A model generated the notes under the pieces. That model had not been told where the DNA came from and did not search any database. It saw only the letters and a program-made list of their open reading frames with translations. Shown here in pieces: positions 8,373 to 28,876 of a stretch of DNA of 64,000 nt. The number at the start of each line of letters is the position of its first letter. Positions within the stretch are counted from its first letter, which is position 1. The stretch covers positions 127 through 64,126 of the forward strand of contig CAYOSE010000003.1 in assembly GCA_964406535.1 (NCBI GenBank), given 5' to 3'. A program made the translations under genes and the position numbers. The DNA is from an uncultured Sphingomonadaceae bacterium (GTDB lineage: Bacteria > Pseudomonadota > Alphaproteobacteria > Sphingomonadales > Sphingomonadaceae).

Positions 8373-9161
8373 CTACCTCGGAAGCTTGTAACGGATGGTC
8401 AGGGATGCGCCCTTTCCCTTTGGTGGTTGGGCAAGAATTGAATCGGCAGCTTTCTGCTCCGCATACATGGCATTGCAGCAGCTTGGCATGGCTGCTTTTG
8501 GCCCCGGATAGCCTCCGAGCTCGCGATGGAGTTCGCCGGAATTGATGTCGAGAAAAGTAGCTTGGCGCATCTCGGCAAGGCGCAGTTTCTTGCGGATTGC
8601 CTCCCGGAAATCATCGGTTGTAGGTATGGAGTTGGCAATTCCTTGTGGCGTAGGTGGAGCGATGGGAAGGCTCGGCTCCGCAGTGGCCTCTAGCTCAAGT
8701 CGGCGACCTGACATGCTCACTGGATTGAGCTCCCAGACCTCGACATCCTCCGGCACCATGTGACCCTGAGTGCGCAGATAATATTCGGCAAGACTCTCGC
8801 TGCGACCGTCGCGAAGGCTCTCCTGCACGATCAGAATCTTGCGATAGCCAGACGGTGCCAGGATGAAATGCAGCATCGCCTCGTTCAGTGACCGCAGCTT
8901 CGCGCTGGGGGCGTTGCCGCCGCTGGTCCAAGTGTATGACTTGCACTCAACAAGCACTGGTGGGGCATCGCCACCCAAGTCGAAGTTGTGCGCCTTCTTT
9001 CGCTCATGCCCAATCAGCGCAGAGAAATTGAAGTCCAGCTCGAGTCCTTGGGATGACAGGAAATCCCGGGCCGACTGTTCGAACTCACGCCCGGCATGCG
9101 CATTGCTGATCGCACCAACCCGTTGATGGGCATTCCGAGGTAGGTCCGCTTCGTCGCTCAC
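8373..9161 (-). CDS. Two-domain PD-(D/E)XK nuclease-like protein
   Basis: 262 aa; GREFE...HNFDLG...LVECKS N-terminal nuclease motif; separate C-terminal module INSGELHRELGGYPG...MPSCC...LTIRYKLPR; GTGA overlap with the MTase stop. Confidence 0.7.
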   Translation of the reverse strand: MSDEADLPRNAHQRVGAISNAHAGREFEQSARDFLSSQGLELDFNFSALIGHERKKAHNFDLGGDAPPVLVECKSYTWTSGGNAPSAKLRSLNEAMLHFILAPSGYRKILIVQESLRDGRSESLAEYYLRTQGHMVPEDVEVWELNPVSMSGRRLELEATAEPSLPIAPPTPQGIANSIPTTDDFREAIRKKLRLAEMRQATFLDINSGELHRELGGYPGPKAAMPSCCNAMYAEQKAADSILAQPPKGKGASLTIRYKLPR

Positions 9162-12100
9162 GCTGCGTATCGTCCATCTTTCAAACGACGTGCCTGTCCG
9201 ATGGCAGTGAGGGAATCGAGGATCGGGCGAACGGTTGCGGCGCGTTTGCCCTTGAAGGTGCGAGCGACATCCTGCGGGGCGAGTGGTACGGTCGAGGCGG
9301 ACAGGACGGCGGCAACGGCGCTGACCTGTTCGGGGAGCTTGTCAGGCCAGGGAAGCACATTGTCGGGCGCGGGGGCAGCCGCTTCGCCAAGGTCGAGAGT
9401 CTGCGAGATCGGGGCCTGATAGTCCGGGGCCTGGTATTCTGGGCGTAGCCAGCGGATAAGTCCCTTGGCTTCCTCGGCGGCGCGTTCCTTGTTGAGTGCG
9501 ACGAGGCGCGTGAGGATGTCCTCGTCTGAAAGATCGGCAGGCCAGCCATAGGCCTCTGCCACTTTGCGGTCGATGGCGTCGTGATGCTGGCGGATCAGGG
9601 TGACGAGGCCGCGATCATGGATATCGCGCTCGGCATCGGTCAGCGCGCGGCCCTCTCCATCGTTAGCTCGCAGGGCTTCGAGCACGTTGTAGACCTTGGT
9701 GAGAGTCAGGTCCTTGTTTTCGGCCAGCACCCGCTTTCGCAGCGCATCGAGCGCCTCGGCTTCGGCGCGGATTTTGTCCTTGAGTGGATCGGGGACATCG
9801 CACGGGAAGGGAAACTTACCGAAGCAATCCGAGTGATTGTAATTCGAGTCATTTCCGACACCCAGCCATGCTCCTGAGCGTTCAGCCCAAATTAAATGCG
9901 TACGGCTGCTAAGCACTCCAAGGTGGAAGGCGTCTTCCAAACCGATGAATATGACCTTTGCGTCGGGCAATGTTGTGATCCTCTCAAACGAGAAGAGACG
10001 ATATTTGGAAGTCCGACATGTAGCGATGAAGCGTTGAAGTCCTGAAGCTGCCGCACGCATGTCCGATCTTGGCTCGGCATACACCCACCATTTTTCGCGG
10101 TAAGACGCTCGCTTGTTCTGATCTCTTACAGGTTTCACTCGGTGGAGCAGTATTTGATATAGGTCAGGAAATTCGCTTCGGAATTCCTCCTCCGAATAGC
10201 CGAACGCATCGATGACGAAACGAGTTTCGCGCCGTCCAGTCAGATCCATCCCGATTATATAGTCTTTGACGACCCCAGATTGCTTTGCTGTCGCAAGATC
10301 GAGTCGGTCTAGGTCGGTTGATTCGAGTCTAAACCCCTTCCCGACAAGGGTCACACCTTGGTAGCTGATTTTCCCATTCGAGCTGAGGTAGGATGAACCG
10401 GCAAGGTTACTTCCGACAGAAAGGTCGGAATTGATTTGATCGCCAGCTTTTGTCGAGAGCTTGACCCAGCGCTCCCCGTACCCGTCCGATATCAGACCCT
10501 CATCAACCACTTCCTGCAAGATTGACTGTCCCGAATAGCCTCCTGTTGTCATCGCGATGCGCACGTCCGCCCCATCTGCTCCATCGACCCAGGGATGATC
10601 GGGAATGGCGAAGAGAAGTTTGCACTTCGCCGCTTCGATCACTGACCTGTTGAATGTTTGCGTGATCGAGTTTGTCGTGATGAACCCAAATCGTGTTGTG
10701 TCACCTCTTGCGGTCGCAGCTGCTGATACTGCCCACCAGTACATCACGAAATCGACCGACTTGCTGATCTTCGGATAAGCCGTACGGACTGCTTCCGCGT
10801 ATCCATCGCCTAACCTGTCGCGCATGCGCTTGTTGCCGATAAATGGCGGGTTCCCGACGATGAATTCCGCATTTGGCCACTTCGTCGATCGCGGTTTGAC
10901 GTAGCGGTAAAGTTCTTTCCGCCCGGTTTCGTCGGGCACCAGTTTTCCGGTAACTGGGTGCTTTTTGAAGCTGATGCCATCCCAAATGCTGAGTGGCTTG
11001 CCGTGCTCATCGCGTTCCAGCTCGCGCCTGTCGTAATCGATCAGGGCGTCGCGGTTCTCGATAGTGCGGATGTCCTTCAGGATCGGTTCGGGCGGGGCGC
11101 GGTCCTTGCCGTTTACGCGGAAATGCCATTGCAGGTAGCCGATCCATAGGACCAGCTGCGCGATGGCGGCGGCGCGCGGGTTGATTTCGATCCCAAGGAA
11201 ATTCTCTGGCGTGATTGTGTGTCCGGTGATCTCCGCTACGTATTGATCGTCACCCAGCTCGACCAAGAGGTCGAGCACTTCGCCCTCCAGTTCCTTCATT
11301 CGCGCCATGGCGACATAGAGGAAATTGCCGGTACCGCAGGCAGGGTCGAGGACGCGGGTTTGCGCCAGTTTTGCATGGAAGCCCTCGACAAGCGACCTAG
11401 CCTCTTTCGCCTTGTCCGCGCCGATAAGTTCGGAGGCGGCAGCACGCACCCCGTTCCAGTCAGCGCGAAGAGGTTCCATAATTGTTGGGCCGATCAGCCG
11501 CTCGACATATGCGCGCGGCGTGTAGTGCGCACCAAGCTTGGCCCGTTCCTTTACGTTGAGTGCGCGTTCGAGCAACGTGCCAAAGATCGCCGGCTCGACC
11601 TCGGTCCAGACCTTGTTCGCCGCTTCGATCAGCACCTTCAATTCATCGGCATCGAGCGGCAGTGCATCGGTGTTCTTGAAGAGGTAACCATTGAATTTAC
11701 GCACCTGCACCGCGAGCGCGGGCGAGAACTCGCCCGAATCCATCGCCTTCCACAATGCCGTCAGCGAGCGAGGCAGGTTGTCGAGATTGTCCTCATGCGC
11801 TTTTAGCAGCGTCTTGAAGCTATCCTTCGGCAGCAGAACTTCGGTGTCCTCTGCGAACATCGTGAACAGCACGCGCATGAGAAACCCACTGACGGTTTCG
11901 GGATCGTGGTTGCGCTCCAGCCGCTTGGAGAGGGTGGCCAGCAGGTCGGCAATTTCACGGGTGACGGCGGCGGAGCGCGATGCCGGGTCGAGACTTTGCG
12001 GATCGGTCCAAATCGCGGCGAGGCGTTCGCGTACCTTCTCGTCGCGCAGGTCCTCAAGCATGATGCGATAACCGGCCCGGTCGGGAAACTGCGCGTAGGC

Positions 12101-12625
12101 CTTGCCGGTGCCGGTGAAGTCAGCATAGACCTCAATGCAGTATCCGATGTCGGCCACCAAGAGGAACGGCGGCCAGCCATGTTCGGTGGGCAGTGCCTTT
12201 GCATAGCGCTCGGCCTGCCCCTTCGCCTCCTGCATGGCCTTAGCCCAGGACGGTGTGCCGCGACGCGCGGTGCCACGGGCAACACGAGCCTTGGCCGTCT
12301 GGCCAAAAAGGTCGAGGTCTTCATCGCCCTTTTCGGCAGCGACGCGGTCTGCCTCACTGCCCTGTTTGGCTTCGAGCACGAAGCAATCGCGCTTGTAGCA
12401 ATCGATGCGCCCGAAACTCTCCGTGCCGTCGCCATTGTCCTGAAACACGCGGCGCTCGAACACATAGTCGTTGGTGGCGTCATCCGCCTTGGCCCCTCGC
12501 GGTGGATCGGCACCGAGCAGCTGGGTCAGGCCATTGATGAAGAGTTGCGTGTTGGCGAGTTCACTGCCGCCAGTCTCGCGCCAATCGGCGATGAATTGTT
12601 CGATTTGATCTTGCGGCGCGGTCAT
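9158..12625 (-). CDS. MmeI-like type IIL fused restriction endonuclease / N6-adenine methyltransferase
   Basis: ~1155 aa from ATG 12625; N-terminal GRIDCYKRDCFVLEAKQG nuclease motif, GAHYTP, motif I VLDPACGTGNF, motif IV NPPF, C-terminal TRD. Confidence 0.9.
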   Translation of the reverse strand: MTAPQDQIEQFIADWRETGGSELANTQLFINGLTQLLGADPPRGAKADDATNDYVFERRVFQDNGDGTESFGRIDCYKRDCFVLEAKQGSEADRVAAEKGDEDLDLFGQTAKARVARGTARRGTPSWAKAMQEAKGQAERYAKALPTEHGWPPFLLVADIGYCIEVYADFTGTGKAYAQFPDRAGYRIMLEDLRDEKVRERLAAIWTDPQSLDPASRSAAVTREIADLLATLSKRLERNHDPETVSGFLMRVLFTMFAEDTEVLLPKDSFKTLLKAHEDNLDNLPRSLTALWKAMDSGEFSPALAVQVRKFNGYLFKNTDALPLDADELKVLIEAANKVWTEVEPAIFGTLLERALNVKERAKLGAHYTPRAYVERLIGPTIMEPLRADWNGVRAAASELIGADKAKEARSLVEGFHAKLAQTRVLDPACGTGNFLYVAMARMKELEGEVLDLLVELGDDQYVAEITGHTITPENFLGIEINPRAAAIAQLVLWIGYLQWHFRVNGKDRAPPEPILKDIRTIENRDALIDYDRRELERDEHGKPLSIWDGISFKKHPVTGKLVPDETGRKELYRYVKPRSTKWPNAEFIVGNPPFIGNKRMRDRLGDGYAEAVRTAYPKISKSVDFVMYWWAVSAAATARGDTTRFGFITTNSITQTFNRSVIEAAKCKLLFAIPDHPWVDGADGADVRIAMTTGGYSGQSILQEVVDEGLISDGYGERWVKLSTKAGDQINSDLSVGSNLAGSSYLSSNGKISYQGVTLVGKGFRLESTDLDRLDLATAKQSGVVKDYIIGMDLTGRRETRFVIDAFGYSEEEFRSEFPDLYQILLHRVKPVRDQNKRASYREKWWVYAEPRSDMRAAASGLQRFIATCRTSKYRLFSFERITTLPDAKVIFIGLEDAFHLGVLSSRTHLIWAERSGAWLGVGNDSNYNHSDCFGKFPFPCDVPDPLKDKIRAEAEALDALRKRVLAENKDLTLTKVYNVLEALRANDGEGRALTDAERDIHDRGLVTLIRQHHDAIDRKVAEAYGWPADLSDEDILTRLVALNKERAAEEAKGLIRWLRPEYQAPDYQAPISQTLDLGEAAAPAPDNVLPWPDKLPEQVSAVAAVLSASTVPLAPQDVARTFKGKRAATVRPILDSLTAIGQARRLKDGRYAA

Positions 12626-12676
12626 CAAGTGCTTGTAGTCGCGAGATTGACCGCGCCGCAATTGCAATATGGTGTC

Positions 12677-13060
12677 TCAATACTCGTGGGCGAGCATTAT
12701 GGTGAGAACGCGCCGGGTGACCGCCGGATCAGCCGGGTCGTCGCTGCCAAACTGCAAATCGCGGTCGTAGGCATCGATCTTCCAGAACACGGTTTCGGCA
12801 GGAAGCGCCGGTCGCGTGGTTGTCCAGCGACCTTCGCCGTCCAGATAGATCGCCCCGAAATCGCGTTCTCCGTAAGGATCATTGTCCGGAGTGAAATCGT
12901 CGAAAGTCTCGACCAGTTCGCGCACGCGCGACTGATCTTGTTCGGGCAAGGCCCGGAACCCCTCGGTTGCCACGGCAACGCAGGCAAGGCCCATCGCCAG
13001 CCGCGCCCGGTCATTGAGGCGGGCAATCCGCTCGCTGTAGGCAATGGTACCAGCACTCAT
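12677..13060 (-). CDS. DUF3768 domain protein
   Basis: 127 aa; NDPYGERDFG, FWKIDAYD, DPADPAVTRRVLTIMLAHEY; ATGA overlap with the upstream gene. Confidence 0.88.
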   Translation of the reverse strand: MSAGTIAYSERIARLNDRARLAMGLACVAVATEGFRALPEQDQSRVRELVETFDDFTPDNDPYGERDFGAIYLDGEGRWTTTRPALPAETVFWKIDAYDRDLQFGSDDPADPAVTRRVLTIMLAHEY

Positions 13061-13245
13061 TGCACTGCCCTCCCACCGCATTCGCAGACGTGAACCAGCT
13101 CGCCAAAATCCTCGCTCTCACCCAGTTCCTCGGCAAGGCGCTGAACTGTCCCGAACGGCAAGCCATTCTCGTTTGCCAGCATCCGCAGCCAGTCTTCGCG
13201 GCACTCGGCCCCGCAAGCCCGGTAGTTCAAGATCAGGTCACCCAT
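13057..13245 (-). CDS. Small conserved hypothetical protein (62 aa)
   Basis: MGDLILNYRACGAECREDWLRMLANENG...LGESEDFGEL; strong GAAGGAGG RBS; coupled to DUF3768. Confidence 0.7.
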   Translation of the reverse strand: MGDLILNYRACGAECREDWLRMLANENGLPFGTVQRLAEELGESEDFGELVHVCECGGRAVQ

Positions 13246-13249
13246 TTTC

Positions 13250-13750
13250 TGCCCTCCTTCGGCTGAAAGCCGCATCCGACACGCGGCATGCGGCCTGCCT
13301 TCCGGCGAGGATGGGAGGGGGAGGGAAGACCGGAATCGATGCCCTGGCGCGGGCCAGCGGGCACAGCCCGCCACACGGGGGCGTCTATTTCCGGTTTCGG
13401 GAACGAGAGGGCAAAGCCTTTGGTGTTCCCGCGAGGGATCGCCCGGCGATCCAGAAGAAACGGCACCCTTGCAACGGCGCGAAGCCGCCGGAGGCCCTGC
13501 GCGCGCGATCAGTGCGCCAGCGGGCCTCCGGCAATGAGAGAGGCAAGAGTGCCTGCGGGTTAGCTCAGGAATGCCGCGCCCTCAGGAGCATGACCGCAGG
13601 ACATGCGGGACAGAGCGCGTCCATCGGGAATTCCCGCTCCGCTTTCAGATGCTCCTGATCGTCACCCGAATGGGCCGGGACTACAGGCCCGGTCCGCAAC
13701 AGCGGATAGAGCAGGTCGCCCGTAAGGGCAGCGCTGCGATTACTGCCTTC
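13250..13750. other. Highly structured non-coding leader upstream of the DUF3768-MmeI operon
   Basis: Dense inverted repeats, e.g. 13487-13497/13522-13532 (11 bp perfect), 13582-13591/13649-13658 (10 bp), GGATCGC-ccg-GCGATCC at 13436-13452, GCCC-GTAA-GGGC at 13718-13729. Confidence 0.6.
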
Positions 13751-13874
13751 ACCCTGATCTGATCTTGCTTGTGATCAGTCGAGCCATCGATGGTGGAAGT
13801 AAGAGCCGATGAATGTTGCTTAAGAAGTCAATCCCTATAACATCTTGGCCACTTTATGAATTGCACGAGAATCC

Positions 13875-23228: not shown

Positions 23229-25976
23229 CTAGCCCATCCCAGCACCCATTGCCTTCGACTTTCCGGCTTCGGGAGTACTCGCGGTCATGGCCGTCTGCTT
23301 CTCGCCCGCACGCTCGTAAATTGCGCGGACAAGCCGGTCTTTGTCGTCGGTGACAACAACCGCCCCGGCTTTGGCACGTGACAGCGCAACATAGAGCATC
23401 TTCTGGTCGACCAGATTGGTGGAACGGCTGTCGGCGTGGATCAGGACGCGCTCGGCGGTCTGGCCCTGCGCGGCGTGTGCGGTCTGGACATAGGCGTGGC
23501 GCAAATGGCTGTCGCGAGGATCGGATAGATCGAGGTTCTGCTCACGCCCATTGGCGAGCTTCAGCGTTGCATGGCCATGATCGGAATCGATACTTGTGAC
23601 GGTCCCGCCAAGGCCATTGACCCGTTCGGCCTCGCGGTCGTTGCGGGTGAACTGCACGCGGTCGCCGGTGCGGAGCTCCATCGGCTTCGGCTCGAACACC
23701 TCGGCTTTGCCTGCACCCCACTGCCGGGGATGCCAGTCAACCGACCTTCCATCGCGGCCTTCCAGGGCAATGCGCCCGCGTTCAGGATCGACATCGGCGA
23801 TCGCAAAGCTCTCGCCCCGGCGCACGCCCTTGGCGGCATAGTCGCGGTTGAACCGGACAACATCGCCGATTGAGTAGCTGGCTGCCTTGCGCGCTTCGGC
23901 ACGGGTAAGACCTTTCGCGTCCAAAGCATCGAACCGCACGGCTTCCGCTGAAAGCTCGCCGCGCTCGGCCAGCTTTGCGCGGATCATACCGGTGAGCCTG
24001 TCGCGGCCTTCGCGCGATGGCTCGATTACCAGCGTTCGCGCGCGCTCTGTTGGCGACAGGGCGAGATAGTGCCGGGCCATCGCCCCAAGGCGCTCGTCCG
24101 GCGTTGTCCCTTCGATCACCTTGCCGCCGCCACGTTCCAGCGCGGCCAGCGCCTTGCCTGCGTGACCTTCGATCGAGGCCATGACGGCTTCGCGGGTTCC
24201 GGCATTGGTCTGCCGGACCACCTCGGCAAGTTTCCCGGTCGCCATGCCAGCCTGCTGCAACTGGGCGAAGGCTGCGCCCGCGCCAACCGAACCCAGCTGC
24301 TTGACGTCGCCAACCAGAACGAGCCGGGCTCCGGCCTTGTCGGCACGCGACATGAGTTTCGCCATGTCGTGAGTCGAGAGCATTGAGGCTTCATCGACAA
24401 TCCAGACAGCCTCCTTGCCTGTTTTCTTCACTTCTGGGGCGAGCAAATGCCGCGCCACGGTATCGCCGCGCAACCCCAGCGTTTCCCCAAGCACGGCTGC
24501 TGCCGATGCAGTTGGCGCGAGCGCGGTCACGGCAAGCCCGTGGCGCCGTGCTTCGCGCGCGTAGGTGGCGAGCACGGTCGTGGTTTTGGCGGTCCCGGCG
24601 TAGCCTTGGACGGCGGCAACGCGGTCGCGCGAAGTGAGCAGGTCTGCGGTCGCGCGCTTCTGGTCTTCGGTCCAGGCATAGCCGGATCGGGCTGACCGCC
24701 GTGCAGCGCGCTCGATGGTTCGTGCTGCCGCCACCGGACTGGCGAGCGATTTCGCCATGCCGCGTCCGGCCTCCTCAAGGCGCAACATGGTACGCTCGGT
24801 CTCGACGGCCTGCGGCGTCGTGAACCCCGCAAACTCCGCACCGCGCCGGTCAAGGAAAGTGCGCGGGACTAGCTCACCGAGTTCTCCGGCCTCGGCAATC
24901 GCTGCGCTGATTGCATCGTGCCCGGCCTTGCCGAAGGCAAAGTCCCCGGCCTCGCGCGCCAGCGTGCTGGCCGAGAATACGGCCTCTCGTTCAGACAGCT
25001 TGGCAGCGGCCCATGCCACAGCCTGCCGAGCCAGCAATTCGGGGCTGGCGGTAGCTTCGCTGGTTTTGGTCCTCTCTCTCGCTTCACTGATCAGCTTGTC
25101 TCGCGCTGCCTTGTCGAACCCGTTGGCATCGGCAGTCGCCCGCCAGTCAGCGCGCAAGGTGCGATGATTGGCATGGCTCTTGGCTTCCCGCGTATCGAGC
25201 GCGGCGATCTGCTTTTCAGCAGCGCTCGCTTCCGCGCGGCTCGTGCCGCGCTCGACAAGCCGGGAATCGATTGCTGCGGTGCGCTGGCTCAGCGCATCGA
25301 CTAGCTTCTCCGGAACGCCTGCGATCTCGAACAACGAGTCTTTCCCGGCCTCGATCTTGTATCCCAACGAAGCTACGCCGTGCGCCAGTTCCTGCCGGTA
25401 GATAGCGCCGATCTCTTTTTGCAGCTGGTAAATTGCGCGCGGCTCGAGGCTGCGCCAGTTGCGATCCTTGTCCTGCGTGGCGTTGATGATCACACCGTGG
25501 GTGTGCAACTGCGGGTCCTGCGCCCGGCTTGTGGCATGGCGGAAGGTGGCGATGGCGAGGTTGCCGGTCACTTCGCGCCGGACCTCGCCGCCCTGCCTGA
25601 TCCGCGTTGCCGCCATATGCTTTTCGACATGGGCGAGCGCCACTTTCACCGCTGCACCATGCGCCTTGATCAGCCGCATGTCTCCGGCAACTTCGGCCAT
25701 GATCGAGACCGACTTGGGCGCGGACAGGGTGATGTCCCAGCCAGGCCGATGCTCGACCTTGCCATCGCGGGTGGTGCCCAGTTGTTGCCCAGCAATTCGG
25801 CCTTCGAGCAATTCGGCAAACTTCTCGCGATCGACCTCGCCTGACAGGCTAAGCTTTTCCGCTGCCTCGCCAAACCATTCGGACGGTGCCAAGCCGCCTT
25901 CGGCATAGTAATCGTCGGCTTCGTAATAGCTGGCTGCCTGACCGGCACTCGACAGGGCCGAGACCGAGGCGACCAT
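23229..25976 (-). CDS. MobF (TrwC/TraI-type) relaxase-helicase
   Basis: 915 aa; YYEADDYY tyrosines, DITLSAPKSVS, HATSRAQDPQLHTH, helicase QGYAGTAKTT, VDEASML, LVGDVKQL. Confidence 0.95.
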   Translation of the reverse strand: MVASVSALSSAGQAASYYEADDYYAEGGLAPSEWFGEAAEKLSLSGEVDREKFAELLEGRIAGQQLGTTRDGKVEHRPGWDITLSAPKSVSIMAEVAGDMRLIKAHGAAVKVALAHVEKHMAATRIRQGGEVRREVTGNLAIATFRHATSRAQDPQLHTHGVIINATQDKDRNWRSLEPRAIYQLQKEIGAIYRQELAHGVASLGYKIEAGKDSLFEIAGVPEKLVDALSQRTAAIDSRLVERGTSRAEASAAEKQIAALDTREAKSHANHRTLRADWRATADANGFDKAARDKLISEARERTKTSEATASPELLARQAVAWAAAKLSEREAVFSASTLAREAGDFAFGKAGHDAISAAIAEAGELGELVPRTFLDRRGAEFAGFTTPQAVETERTMLRLEEAGRGMAKSLASPVAAARTIERAARRSARSGYAWTEDQKRATADLLTSRDRVAAVQGYAGTAKTTTVLATYAREARRHGLAVTALAPTASAAAVLGETLGLRGDTVARHLLAPEVKKTGKEAVWIVDEASMLSTHDMAKLMSRADKAGARLVLVGDVKQLGSVGAGAAFAQLQQAGMATGKLAEVVRQTNAGTREAVMASIEGHAGKALAALERGGGKVIEGTTPDERLGAMARHYLALSPTERARTLVIEPSREGRDRLTGMIRAKLAERGELSAEAVRFDALDAKGLTRAEARKAASYSIGDVVRFNRDYAAKGVRRGESFAIADVDPERGRIALEGRDGRSVDWHPRQWGAGKAEVFEPKPMELRTGDRVQFTRNDREAERVNGLGGTVTSIDSDHGHATLKLANGREQNLDLSDPRDSHLRHAYVQTAHAAQGQTAERVLIHADSRSTNLVDQKMLYVALSRAKAGAVVVTDDKDRLVRAIYERAGEKQTAMTASTPEAGKSKAMGAGMG

Positions 25977-27796
25977 CAGACCGGTCCCGGTTTCGCGTCA
26001 GGCTCGGCACCTTTGGCGATCTCGCTGACCCGGCTCCAAAGTGTGCCCGCAGGATCGCCTGGCACGTAGGCAGGCTGGCGAGGTTCGCCACGCCGGGCGA
26101 TGTGATCAGCGGTGAGACCGATGCGCGCGACAGGCAGGCCATCGGGAAGCAGCAGATAGCCCTGATGCGGACTGAGCCGCAATTCGCTTTCGAGCACGGC
26201 AGGTCGGAACTGGCGCTGTGTCGCGATGGTCGTGCGCGGCACCTCGCTGCCAATCGACAACGTATCGGTGGCAACGCGTAGTTCCACCTCGCACTGACCG
26301 ATGGTCTCGCTCGCCCATTTGCGCGTTTCCTGATCGACGGTTTGCAGGAACAGCTTGGTATTGCAGCAGGCGAGCATGGCTTCGGCGATGTTCGCGCCAT
26401 AGCGATTGCGCATCTGCCCGAGCGCCTGAAAGGTGAGCACAATCGCTGCGCCGAACTTTCGGCCCTCGGGCAGCAGACGGGCAAGGTTCTCGACGCGGGG
26501 GAGGTCAGCCAGCTCGTCGAGCACGAACCAGATGCGGCGGTTCGGAGATGGCGACAGACCCAGCACCGCACTCGCAGCGCATTCGAGCCAGCACGCCATC
26601 AGCGGCTTGGATGCTTCGAAGTAGTCTTCCTTGCGGGGCACAAAGATCCACGGCTTTGCCCCCTCGCACTCGTCCAGCTTCGCGATGAAATCGCGGAAGG
26701 CGAAACGGTCCTCTCCTTCGTCCTCGACCTGCAGGAACTGAATCAGATTTGCCGCCTTGGCGAGCATGAAGAGCACGCTGCCGGTGGCACGGTCGGCGTC
26801 GTTGGCAAAGGTGCGGGCCGACGAAGTGTGCCCCAGCCATTCCTTCAACTGCTCCTTGTCCTTGACCTGCAAGGCTTCGAGCAAAGCTTCGAGGCTGCAG
26901 TTCTTTTCCGCCCAGAGTGAACGGATCATGTTGGCGACAAGAATGCGACTGGTTTCGAGCCAGACATCGTCATCCTGACTGCTGGTTTCCGAAACGAGTT
27001 GGCGCGCTATCCGGTCTGCATCGGCGGGGTGCGATATCTCGTCGAACGGTGTCCAGAAGGCACAGCGCGCATCGAAGGGATTGAGGATAATGTCCCCGCG
27101 CGCGGGGTTGTAATAGTGCGCGATGAACTCGCCCGATGTGTCATAGACCAGCGCGGCTTCACCGCGCCTTTCGATGCCGTCGAGCATCTGGCGAAGGGCA
27201 GTGGTCTTGCCGCTGCCGGTGGTGCCGAGAAAGGCAAAGTGGCGGGTCTCGATCCGGCTAGGAACGGGGACTGGGCCGATGCGCAATGCATACCTGCCAC
27301 AGAGCAATGTGGTCTGTGCGGCGACGTCCTCTTCATCCGCCACACGGGTTCCGCCAATGACCCGGTCGGCGAGCGTATCTTTGCCCTGAGCTGACATGGT
27401 GCGCTGGAGCACCCAGACCGTGAACAGGCCTATCAAAAGGCCCGTGATTGCACCGCCAGCGATCACTTTGACGACCTGCCAGAAGGTATCGGTGAACAAC
27501 GGTTCCGAGGCGAACCAGGCGGCGGAAACGGTCCAGCGCTGGCCCTCCATCGCTATGTTTATCTTGATGTCGCTGCCTGTCAGCGAGCCCAGCAAGGTCA
27601 GTGCATTGGCCCATGCATACTGCAATGCGGTCGTGATCGCGGGGCCATGCAGCAGGAACTGGGGTGCGATGATTGCTCCGGCCGCTGCTGCACCAAGCGT
27701 GATCGTGGAAAAGAAGCGAAAACGCTGCTGCCATTGCGCCATGCGAACACGCCACAAGGCATGGGCGCGGGTAACAAAGTCGATGTTGGAATTCAT
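25976..27796 (-). CDS. Type IV coupling protein (TrwB/TraD-like)
   Basis: 606 aa; two N-terminal TM segments, GTTGSGKT Walker A, LDELADL Walker B, GRKFG; TGATG overlap with the relaxase. Confidence 0.93.
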   Translation of the reverse strand: MNSNIDFVTRAHALWRVRMAQWQQRFRFFSTITLGAAAAGAIIAPQFLLHGPAITTALQYAWANALTLLGSLTGSDIKINIAMEGQRWTVSAAWFASEPLFTDTFWQVVKVIAGGAITGLLIGLFTVWVLQRTMSAQGKDTLADRVIGGTRVADEEDVAAQTTLLCGRYALRIGPVPVPSRIETRHFAFLGTTGSGKTTALRQMLDGIERRGEAALVYDTSGEFIAHYYNPARGDIILNPFDARCAFWTPFDEISHPADADRIARQLVSETSSQDDDVWLETSRILVANMIRSLWAEKNCSLEALLEALQVKDKEQLKEWLGHTSSARTFANDADRATGSVLFMLAKAANLIQFLQVEDEGEDRFAFRDFIAKLDECEGAKPWIFVPRKEDYFEASKPLMACWLECAASAVLGLSPSPNRRIWFVLDELADLPRVENLARLLPEGRKFGAAIVLTFQALGQMRNRYGANIAEAMLACCNTKLFLQTVDQETRKWASETIGQCEVELRVATDTLSIGSEVPRTTIATQRQFRPAVLESELRLSPHQGYLLLPDGLPVARIGLTADHIARRGEPRQPAYVPGDPAGTLWSRVSEIAKGAEPDAKPGPV

Positions 27797-28167
27797 GGCT
27801 CGATCTCCAGGGCAAGCGAGCGCTGGCGCTCGAATGCGGCACGCGCTTCGGCTGCAATTGTCTCGTCGGATTTCTTGGTTCCCAGCGCCGCATGGCGGGC
27901 ATAAGCGTAGGCCGCACAGGCGGTGAACAGGGTGCGATCGAGCACCCGTTCGGCCTCGGCGAGGCGCGCCGATATCGCCCCGATCTCGCGCGCCAGTTCG
28001 GCGAGATCGGTCTCCTTGTCGGTGCCGTGCAGGACCGAAAGAAAGCCCGCGTCGATCACCTTCAGGAGCATCGCGTATTCCGACAATCCGCGCCGGTCGG
28101 CGATGCCGGAAAGCGACCGTGCCTGTGAAGGATTGAGGCGGATGGTGCGCTTGATGTGACTCGCCAT
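27793..28167 (-). CDS. Ribbon-helix-helix relaxosome accessory protein (TrwA/MobA-like)
   Basis: 124 aa from ATG 28167 with GGAGG RBS; HIKRTIRLNPSQARSLSGIADRRGLSEYAMLLKVI RHH pattern; first gene of the mob operon. Confidence 0.7.
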   Translation of the reverse strand: MASHIKRTIRLNPSQARSLSGIADRRGLSEYAMLLKVIDAGFLSVLHGTDKETDLAELAREIGAISARLAEAERVLDRTLFTACAAYAYARHAALGTKKSDETIAAEARAAFERQRSLALEIEP

Positions 28168-28169
28168 CA

Positions 28170-28330
28170 CCACCTCCCGCGCGCGCTCGAAGCGCGCTCC
28201 GGAAATGGCGGATTTGCTATGGTTTGAGCGCTTTCTTTCAGCGAGCGCGCTATCCGCGCGCTCCAGAAACCGCAGAGTTCCTCGATGCACACGTGCGTGG
28301 GGTGTGTATGAAAATTCCGGGTCCGATACG
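28170..28330 (+). promoter_or_regulatory. oriT: oriT with predicted nic between 28305 and 28306
   Basis: TGCGTGGGGTGT^G at 28294-28306 matches the F-plasmid nic core; IR GAGCGCGC-tatcc-GCGCGCTC at 28243-28263; upstream of the MobF operon in F-like orientation. Confidence 0.8.
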
Positions 28331-28378
28331 TAGTATCGTGGCCCCTCATTCTCTCCGGTTGATAAGCGGGTCCGTGCA

Positions 28379-28876
28379 TCACAGGCCCTCGCCAAATTCA
28401 GGAAGGGGACGCGCGAAAGCGCGTATCTGCTGCTCAGCTTCAGCGTCCGCAGCCGCGCGGTTCGCAAACGGCTTTTCAAAGATTGCAGGCACGAAGTCGA
28501 AGTCCCTGTCGTGCAACCATTCGCGCACTGTCTCATCGACCACTTCGCGCAGCTTTTCACGCAGTTCGAACGCCTCCTCGGGGGTAATCCGGGTCCACTG
28601 GATCTGGCGTTCAATGAACCCGCCAAGCGGGTATTCATTGCCATCAATCCGGATCGCCGGGCCTTCGAACTGGACGTTGAATTCCGCGCCGATGAAACGG
28701 TCAATCATGGGGCGTTCGAAGTAGAGCCAGTCGGCAATGAAGCCGCGATAACACATGCCATCAGGGCCAGGTCGGCTGAGCCGCCGGACGTATTCATCAA
28801 TCAGCAGTTCGGTGAGGCTCTTGTAGCGCTCGGCAGGTTCAATGCACGGAGTTGTGGGGGCAGCAGAGTCGTTCAT
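28379..28876 (-). CDS. Hypothetical protein (165 aa)
   Basis: ORF from ATG 28876 (MNDSAAPTT...), located between oriT and alpA; no recognisable domain. Confidence 0.6.
   Translation of the reverse strand: MNDSAAPTTPCIEPAERYKSLTELLIDEYVRRLSRPGPDGMCYRGFIADWLYFERPMIDRFIGAEFNVQFEGPAIRIDGNEYPLGGFIERQIQWTRITPEEAFELREKLREVVDETVREWLHDRDFDFVPAIFEKPFANRAAADAEAEQQIRAFARPLPEFGEGL

Follow-up and report, generated by a model that had tools for sequence, protein, structure and literature searches.

A conserved structured non-coding element of Sphingomonadaceae mobile elements: a candidate single-stranded-DNA promoter

A structured non-coding element of 490 nt was delimited in a 629-bp gap of the window (i.e. 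the whole 64,000-nt stretch of DNA from an uncultured Sphingomonadaceae bacterium that was analysed). The conserved secondary structure of this element is real, and the evidence favours folding of its main domains by the plus strand, the template of the adjacent minus-strand operon (62-aa ORF, DUF3768 gene and MmeI-type restriction-modification gene). Computed support from conservation, covariation, plus-strand folding and gene associations leads us, with slightly more than even confidence, to read the element as a strand-specific ssDNA promoter or priming element of the Frpo/ssi kind, and it is probably an alphaproteobacterial counterpart of the Frpo promoters of the F plasmid. The window carries a tRNA-integrated mobilisable element (IME), in which the structured element separates the 62-aa ORF operon from a plus-strand HATPase-Z1-DUF4420-AIPR operon (Table 1). 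The sequence-only reading had proposed either an ssDNA promoter or a cis-regulatory RNA at this site; a structure folded on the plus strand was favoured and, for the main domains, a leader in the mRNA sense was not.

Table 1. Features of the window and of the structured element (positions in the window)
Feature	Position	Strand	Remarks
tRNA	1076-1159
Integrase	1339-2541
MmeI-type restriction-modification gene	9158-12667	-	9 nt past DUF3768
DUF3768 gene	12677-13081	-	Pfam PF12599, 110.8 bits
62-aa ORF	13057-13245	-	first gene of the operon; kept in IME relatives
Whole conserved element	13246-13735	+	490 nt; IME-type (module 1 + module 2)
Module 1	13244-13432	+	recurrent gene-proximal unit, ~190 nt; covariance model R1, 205 bits
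P0-P3 domain	13248-13328	+	P0: RBS complement 13248-13259 paired with invariant G-tract
P1	13260-13272	+	enclosed by P0
GGCT-GAA-AGCC	13261-13271	+
P2	13269-13294	+	enclosed by P0
P3	13298-13314	+	enclosed by P0
G-tract	13313-13328	+	complementary to RBS complement 13248-13259
P4	13329-13336/13387-13395	+	main rod, within 13329-13395
P5	13338-13344/13379-13385	+	main rod
P6	13345-13356	+	side hairpin on rod
P7	13357-13371	+	side hairpin on rod
-10-like CTATTT (13385-13390)/TATTTC	13385-13391	+	3' arm of rod
Hairpin P8/P9	13399-13430	+	compensated sequences in copy from another family
Module 2	13436-13735	+	four parts: Pa, D2, D3, D4
Hairpin Pa	13436-13452	+	unrelated hairpins take its place in relatives
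D2 rod	13462-13553	+	11-bp stem and GCGAAGC mini-hairpin; ~55-nt hairpin insert at tip in some relatives
GCGAAGC mini-hairpin	13479-13485	+
11-bp perfect stem	13487-13497/13522-13532	+
D3 core	13552-13647	+	three stacked helices; covariance model R2, 85 bits
10-bp perfect stem	13582-13591/13649-13658	+
D4 multibranch domain	13651-13732	+	ends in boundary hairpin
GCCC-GTAA-GGGC	13718-13729	+	boundary hairpin
HATPase-Z1-DUF4420-AIPR operon	from 13875	+
TrwC relaxase	23229-25976	-
TrwB-type coupling protein (T4CP)	25976-27796	-
Candidate oriT	28242-28306	+	inverted repeat, then GTGCGTGGGGTGT nick-like motif; upstream of T4CP-TrwC operon; nicked strand inferred

The element is bounded on the left by the 62-aa ORF's RBS and has a sharp right edge, marked by the boundary hairpin. 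A structured non-coding region had been proposed at 13250-13750; both attributes held and the limits were corrected to those in Table 1. Full-length homologues spanned positions 1-487 of the 490-nt query at 69-94% identity and diverged abruptly beyond, with positions 13736-13874 being conserved in the two closest relatives only. Of 401 genomes of the order compared at the DNA level, 69, representing 28 of 96 genera, had matches, nearly all within one family, and blastn (word 11) against 72,556 plasmids matched 14 records, all from Sphingomonadales. In pairwise comparisons of 19 homologues, 149 of 164 indel runs were not multiples of three, indicating that the element is not a gene; the unrecognised CDS that the sequence-only reading had allowed for was thereby ruled out. 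A search of Rfam found no match at the gathering score or the E-value threshold (best E-value 0.22, far below threshold), neither STAXI nor any other family having a covariance-model match. A repeat within its own genome was also rejected, as only a weak 43-nt match and a 23-bit R1 match were found and both were taken as chance.

The stems, about ten in number, and the loops named in the sequence-only reading were all present. Both strands of the region folded better than dinucleotide shuffles: DNA parameters gave z-scores of -4.6 (plus) and -3.9 (minus), with none of 100 shuffles as stable, and RNA parameters gave a z-score of approximately -3. Covariation was assessed on 31 distinct module-1 copies. 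Paired cells amounted to 96.1% as compared to 89.6% in shuffles, pairs with both sides changed numbered 23 as compared to 10.1 +/- 1.7, and none of 500 shuffles reached any of the observed measures; slid controls were about three-fold lower (~0.08 versus 0.257 observed). Structural conservation, whose absence from homologues had been put forward as grounds for doubt, was thus strong. Both P4 and P5 exhibited three to four Watson-Crick pair types at each position, and pair 13340:13383 varied as T·G, C-G, G-C, T-A and A-T. P3 and the G-tract were nearly invariant across all copies. Hairpins were lengthened, or swapped for unrelated hairpins, among relatives; P7 is a 6-bp hairpin in the window versus a three-segment hairpin of ~21 bp in plasmids. 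Invariant features of D3 were a C·A mismatch (13580:13614) and a 6x6 internal loop (13583-13588/13606-13611), and five of its 11 pairs were compensated.

Two sequence features were noted within this fold. GCCWGCGGG was found three times on the plus strand of the 490-nt element (13353-13361, 13516-13524 and 13551-13559) and eight times in the 64-kb window; every copy in the element starts a helix arm, and the motif could be a protein or polymerase contact. GGAGC (13585-13589), in the invariant internal loop of D3, is complementary to GCTCC at 13636-13640 or 13651-13655, just 3' of D3. This pairing is the 10-bp stem of the sequence-only reading, and a GCTCC following D3 was kept in all D3 types, so that a pseudoknot or alternative fold is possible.

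The folding strand was addressed through wobble pairs, since folding on the minus strand is expected of an mRNA leader and folding on the plus strand of an element of the transferred strand. Using hand-defined helices in 50 unique copies, wobble cells of P4-P9 on the plus strand were G·T in 138 cases and A·C in 11 (95 versus 6 for P4-P7; 43 versus 5 for P8/P9). A structure-blind MAFFT alignment, considering pairs predicted on both strands, gave 69 G·T and 21 A·C cells on the plus strand. The G·T cells occupied positions that were fully compensated elsewhere, and in the mRNA sense they would produce tandem A·C mismatches. Unpaired columns exhibited no excess of C/T over A/G (33 versus 37 columns), indicating that the wobble asymmetry is not a mutation bias. 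D4 had 12-17 G·T and 3-5 A·C cells. The bias was reversed in P1/P2 (A·C 25 versus G·T 8), a weak hint of folding in the 5' end of the mRNA, and a structured 5' UTR could well make up the first 80 nt. On the opposite strand, the invariant C·A mismatch of D3 would read as a G·U pair, and in one analysis both Pa and D3 leaned towards the minus strand.

Loop types and stability were also compared between strands. Counted in hairpins with at least four pairs, GNA triloops numbered 97 on the plus and 16 on the minus strand and GNRA loops 36 and 6, a six-fold excess overall, and the heptamers GCGAAGC (49 versus 1) and GCGCAGC (40 versus 1) together gave 89 versus 2. Hirao and co-workers reportedly found that d(C-GNA-G) loops produce unusually stable DNA hairpins; triloops are uncommon among structured RNAs. 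The MFE of module 1 was lower on the plus strand in all 50 copies with RNA parameters and in 49 of 50 with DNA parameters, and that of the full element in 13 and 18, respectively, of 19 homologues. Wobble pairs, loop types and folding energy are three independent tests, and each assigned the fold to the plus strand.

Module 1 recurs in front of different genes. Of 151 genomes of the family searched with R1, 27 contained copies, as did one genome of another alphaproteobacterial family; a genome had at most five copies and a contig at most three in the same orientation (three in G468:C3, three in G459:C45 and two in G445:C4). For most of 29 copies examined, a start codon on the opposite strand lay 0-7 nt from the end of module 1. 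The abutting genes, whose identities were checked with Pfam, encoded ArdC (ArdcN plus zincin peptidase), ArdA-family, SSB, ParB-like and DUF3768 proteins and two small ORFs; the copy at the SSB gene was weak and diverged. These associations agree with the Frpo logic invoked by the sequence-only reading. In sphingomonad plasmids, module 1 immediately precedes an unrelated 63-aa ORF, behind which lies a ParB-like gene of ~600 aa. Plasmid pBSY17_3 carries three copies (before ArdC, before the 63-aa ORF and ParB-like gene, and before DUF3768), all on the strand of its MOBP relaxase, and the genes were likewise co-oriented with the relaxase in the IME family, G468:C3 and G412:C2. D3 alone, detected with R2, recurs in the same family 255-350 nt upstream of ~400-aa, ArdC-like and integrase-like genes; among module-1 copies it was found only with those having a short P7 and was missing from all plasmid-type copies.

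Promoter-like features were located on the 3' arm of the rod. The -10-like segment adjoins a conserved C·T mismatch (13337:13386) and a bulged T (13388), and its A and TT were nearly invariant across copies. Plasmid-type copies display CTTGGC or CTTGTC on this arm, then 17 nt, then CTATTT, GATTGT or GATTAT, and these hexamers were kept in three divergent subfamilies despite otherwise different stems. By a rough count, a 10/12 hexamer match would arise by chance in 230 nt with a probability of ~0.05; the hexamers are therefore suggestive, and their weight rests on conservation and position. The window copy has a short P7, no -35 hexamer and a -10-like hexamer without the final T, and carries module 2 instead. 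A sigma-70 scan of the window's element found no consensus site on either strand, and no conserved match to CTTGAC-N16-18-CTATAT emerged when 19 IME-type homologues were scanned. Promoters of the sigma-54, EcfG and Caulobacter types, checked by hand, did not fit (e.g. the GGAAC...CGTT spacing for EcfG was 19 nt).

Under the favoured reading, transfer (or rolling-circle replication) would leave the plus strand single-stranded, allowing the conserved hairpin domains to fold. The P4/P5 rod beside the gene would then display the partly mismatched -10-like segment on its 3' arm and, in plasmid relatives, also the -35-like hexamer 17 nt upstream. By the Frpo geometry, as derived here, hexamers on the 3' arm would steer RNA polymerase along the 5' arm as template and towards the gene, i.e. 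leftwards into the 62-aa ORF, DUF3768 and, here, MmeI. Such transcription would precede the existence of the complementary strand, whose synthesis could be primed by the same RNA. Module 2 (i.e. D2-D4), which accompanies only short forms of the -35-bearing hairpin, would supply the missing recruitment or priming. Of these steps, we infer the transfer of the plus strand, the action of RNA polymerase, the transcription start site and the role of module 2. The G-tract complementary to the RBS, which had been proposed to gate expression, is present, and gating through this pairing is possible; the pairing is not independent evidence of it, because any purine-rich RBS would give the same.

To our knowledge, ssDNA promoters are known experimentally only from enterobacterial IncF/IncI plasmids, where they switch on anti-defence and SOS-suppressing genes while the incoming DNA is still single-stranded. 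Class 1 comprises Frpo1 and Frpo2 of F and ssi1-3 of ColIb-P9/pESBL (PMC9849209, PMC11541004, PMC12672017), with Frpo/ssi driving ssb and ardA in IncF/IncI plasmids (PMC9849209, PMC12672017). Like these, the Sphingomonadaceae element is non-coding, a few hundred nt long and on the template strand of genes, it lies upstream of ssb and anti-restriction-type genes with several co-oriented copies per plasmid, and it is the template strand rather than its complement that folds; the template would also be the transferred strand, as predicted below. Class 1 promoters require hairpin folding and have -35/-10-like hexamers on one arm with mismatches in the -10 (PMC9849209, PMC11541004, PMC12672017), and the plasmid relatives of the element similarly bear such hexamers on one arm. 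In contrast to class 1, the element lacks sequence similarity (the blastn matches among plasmids being confined to Sphingomonadales), is GC-rich and multibranched rather than one long stem-loop, and its window copy lacks a -35 and is not next to oriT. Unrelated hairpins with the same role before anti-restriction genes are the class 2 (ardA/klcA) and class 3 (M.EcoGIX) promoters of pESBL/F (PMC12672017); unlike the predicted element here, they were mapped by 5'-RACE in transconjugants, and they are single large stem-loops. STAXI (Rfam RF01728) is a structured motif near SSB, anti-restriction, integrase and topoisomerase genes that has been discussed as a possible ssDNA structure (PMC2864571). 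It resembles the element in being conserved, structured and close to SSB and anti-restriction genes, and differs in being enterobacterial, in having repeated pseudoknots and UUCG loops that argue for RNA, and in the lack of an Rfam match here.

The plus strand had been presented as both operon template and transferred strand. The first holds; the second is predicted from the layout of relaxase and oriT, with the plus strand moving 5' to 3' rightwards, because by analogy with MOBF/MOBP systems the relaxase operon would enter last and its template strand would be transferred. In the IME family, the layout was constant (integrase, cargo, DUF3768, 62-aa ORF, element, cargo, TrwC, T4CP and oriT side) and the 62-aa ORF/DUF3768 operon was always co-oriented with the relaxase operon. 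The element lies, and would enter, ~17 kb from the candidate nick in the window, part of this distance being cargo, and the distance is 20-40 kb in pBSY17_3; it is therefore not in a classical leading region. The call of a 303-aa ORF at 27793-28704 probably begins too far upstream: only residues ~119-303 have matches in relatives, and the extended frame includes the candidate oriT.

Several points count against an ssDNA promoter of the Frpo kind. The multibranched fold with its conserved internal loops resembles a large RNA more than the single long Frpo hairpin. The window copy has no -35, an incomplete -10-like hexamer and no sigma-70 site in the scan, and the MmeI restriction-modification gene needs steady expression, which a promoter active only on ssDNA would not give. 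Distance from the predicted nick, the reliance of the T-strand assignment on the MOBF/MOBP analogy and the D3 C·A mismatch, which would pair as G·U on the opposite strand, also weigh against it. Finally, the predicted start falls on a purine-only template stretch, so that the RNA would begin with a pyrimidine, and in the plasmid type a single-stranded 7-nt junction breaks the duplex between the -35-like and -10-like hexamers. We also entertain, tentatively and at low confidence, an undescribed class of large, multi-domain and sequence-conserved ssDNA elements in which shape, especially that of D3 with the mismatch and internal loop that never vary, and not sigma-70 hexamers would recruit the host's transcription or priming machinery. 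That covariation would here define an ssDNA regulatory family for the first time, one spread over alphaproteobacterial plasmids, ICEs and IMEs, is held just as tentatively; Frpo/ssi structures were predicted by single-sequence folding (PMC9849209, PMC11541004, PMC12672017).

The main rival to the ssDNA-promoter reading is a large structured non-coding RNA, transcribed rightwards from the plus strand, divergent from the adjacent gene and acting in trans or as an antisense regulator, which we consider unlikely. It would account for the fold on the plus strand, the multi-domain architecture with GNRA loops, invariant internal loops and a possible GGAGC/GCTCC pseudoknot, and the frequent G·U-like pairs, and mobile elements are known to carry large non-coding RNAs. 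However, such an RNA would have no room for a conserved upstream promoter, with the left edge abutting the start codons of at least six unrelated genes, and no terminator was found at the sharp right boundary. The sole promoter-like hexamers lie inside the covarying rod, d(C-GNA-G) triloops dominate the plus strand, and the fixed position relative to the start codon is given no reason.

A single-strand origin or priming site alone, of the sso/ssi type and not promoting the adjacent genes, is a still less likely reading. Orientation-specific folded ssDNA on which RNA polymerase makes a primer is known from ssoA/ssoU of rolling-circle plasmids, ICEBs1 sso1 and the minus-strand origin of filamentous phages, and integrative elements need a single-strand priming site (e.g. 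ICEBs1 sso1). The strand evidence applies equally to this reading, the multi-hairpin layout resembles sso and G4-type ssi signals, and the D3 core occurs 255-350 nt from genes without promoter hexamers. Single-strand origins are, however, not tied to the start codon of a gene, and both the 0-7 nt spacing of module 1 and the two to three copies per contig, each before a gene, would be left unexplained.

Improbable, and below both of the preceding readings, is a cis-regulatory 5' leader of the operon mRNA, e.g. a translational switch in which a C-rich tract hides the RBS. The position directly against the RBS, the CCCTCC/GGAGGG complementarity, the minus-strand lean of P1/P2 and the behaviour of Pa and D3 described above would suit a leader. 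These are set against the tandem A·C mismatches that the P4-P9 wobble cells would create within compensated helices, loops that would read UNC/UNNC, a minus strand less stable in 49-50 of 50 module-1 copies, and the lack of both an Rfam match and, in the variable distal end, a promoter. We regard as very improbable an unrecognised gene or an array of palindromes bound by protein as duplex DNA (operator or centromere-like): inverted repeats are many, GCCWGCGGG is repeated and ParB-like genes are nearby in relatives, but duplex sites cannot produce wobble and loop statistics that differ between the strands, stems stay paired despite changing sequence and length, and the indel phase contradicts a gene.

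If the element is an ssDNA promoter, a non-homologous alphaproteobacterial family would show the strategy to be general, and wobble asymmetry combined with loop type would offer a comparative means of detecting such elements, whatever the mobile element that carries them. Candidate early establishment or anti-defence factors would then include DUF3768, the 62/63-aa ORFs and the large ParB-like proteins, and a restriction-modification gene (MmeI) would be placed under an ssDNA element. A literature search found no work on DUF3768 or on ssDNA promoters in Alphaproteobacteria, and for DUF3768 no relative with a solved structure and no NCBIfam model were found. The MmeI-type gene was missing at this position in most relatives and is therefore cargo. 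In the second IME copy of G217 (L043/L044), an MmeI homologue (31% identity) lies across the element and divergent from the 62-aa ORF, so MmeI-type genes recur beside the element in either position. In G257 (L039 19398-19795), the DUF3768 match was split into two pieces in different frames, and the gene is probably frameshifted.

Further copies differed in architecture. The module-1 copy from the other alphaproteobacterial family (L126:1681-2190, 87.7 bits) lies directly before an ArdA-family gene, shows a good TATTTT and a short P7, and lacks module 2. Decay or rearrangement probably accounts for copies L016, L017, L071, L072 and L094, in which the adjacent ORF was lost or the left end (P1/P2) replaced. 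A conserved ~400-aa gene (L030, L033, L095-L100; e.g. L033:1842-3032) gave no Pfam match, so that the name DUF932 was dropped, and has its own conserved hairpin-rich element of ~430 nt upstream; promoter hexamers were looked for in this D3-bearing element and none were found. Its D3 lies ~255 nt upstream of the gene and a sharp boundary hairpin marks its end. A D3-like core was also observed ~295 nt upstream of the 414-aa genes of L107, L108 and L111, which, judged from their N-terminal sequence, may be tyrosine integrases.
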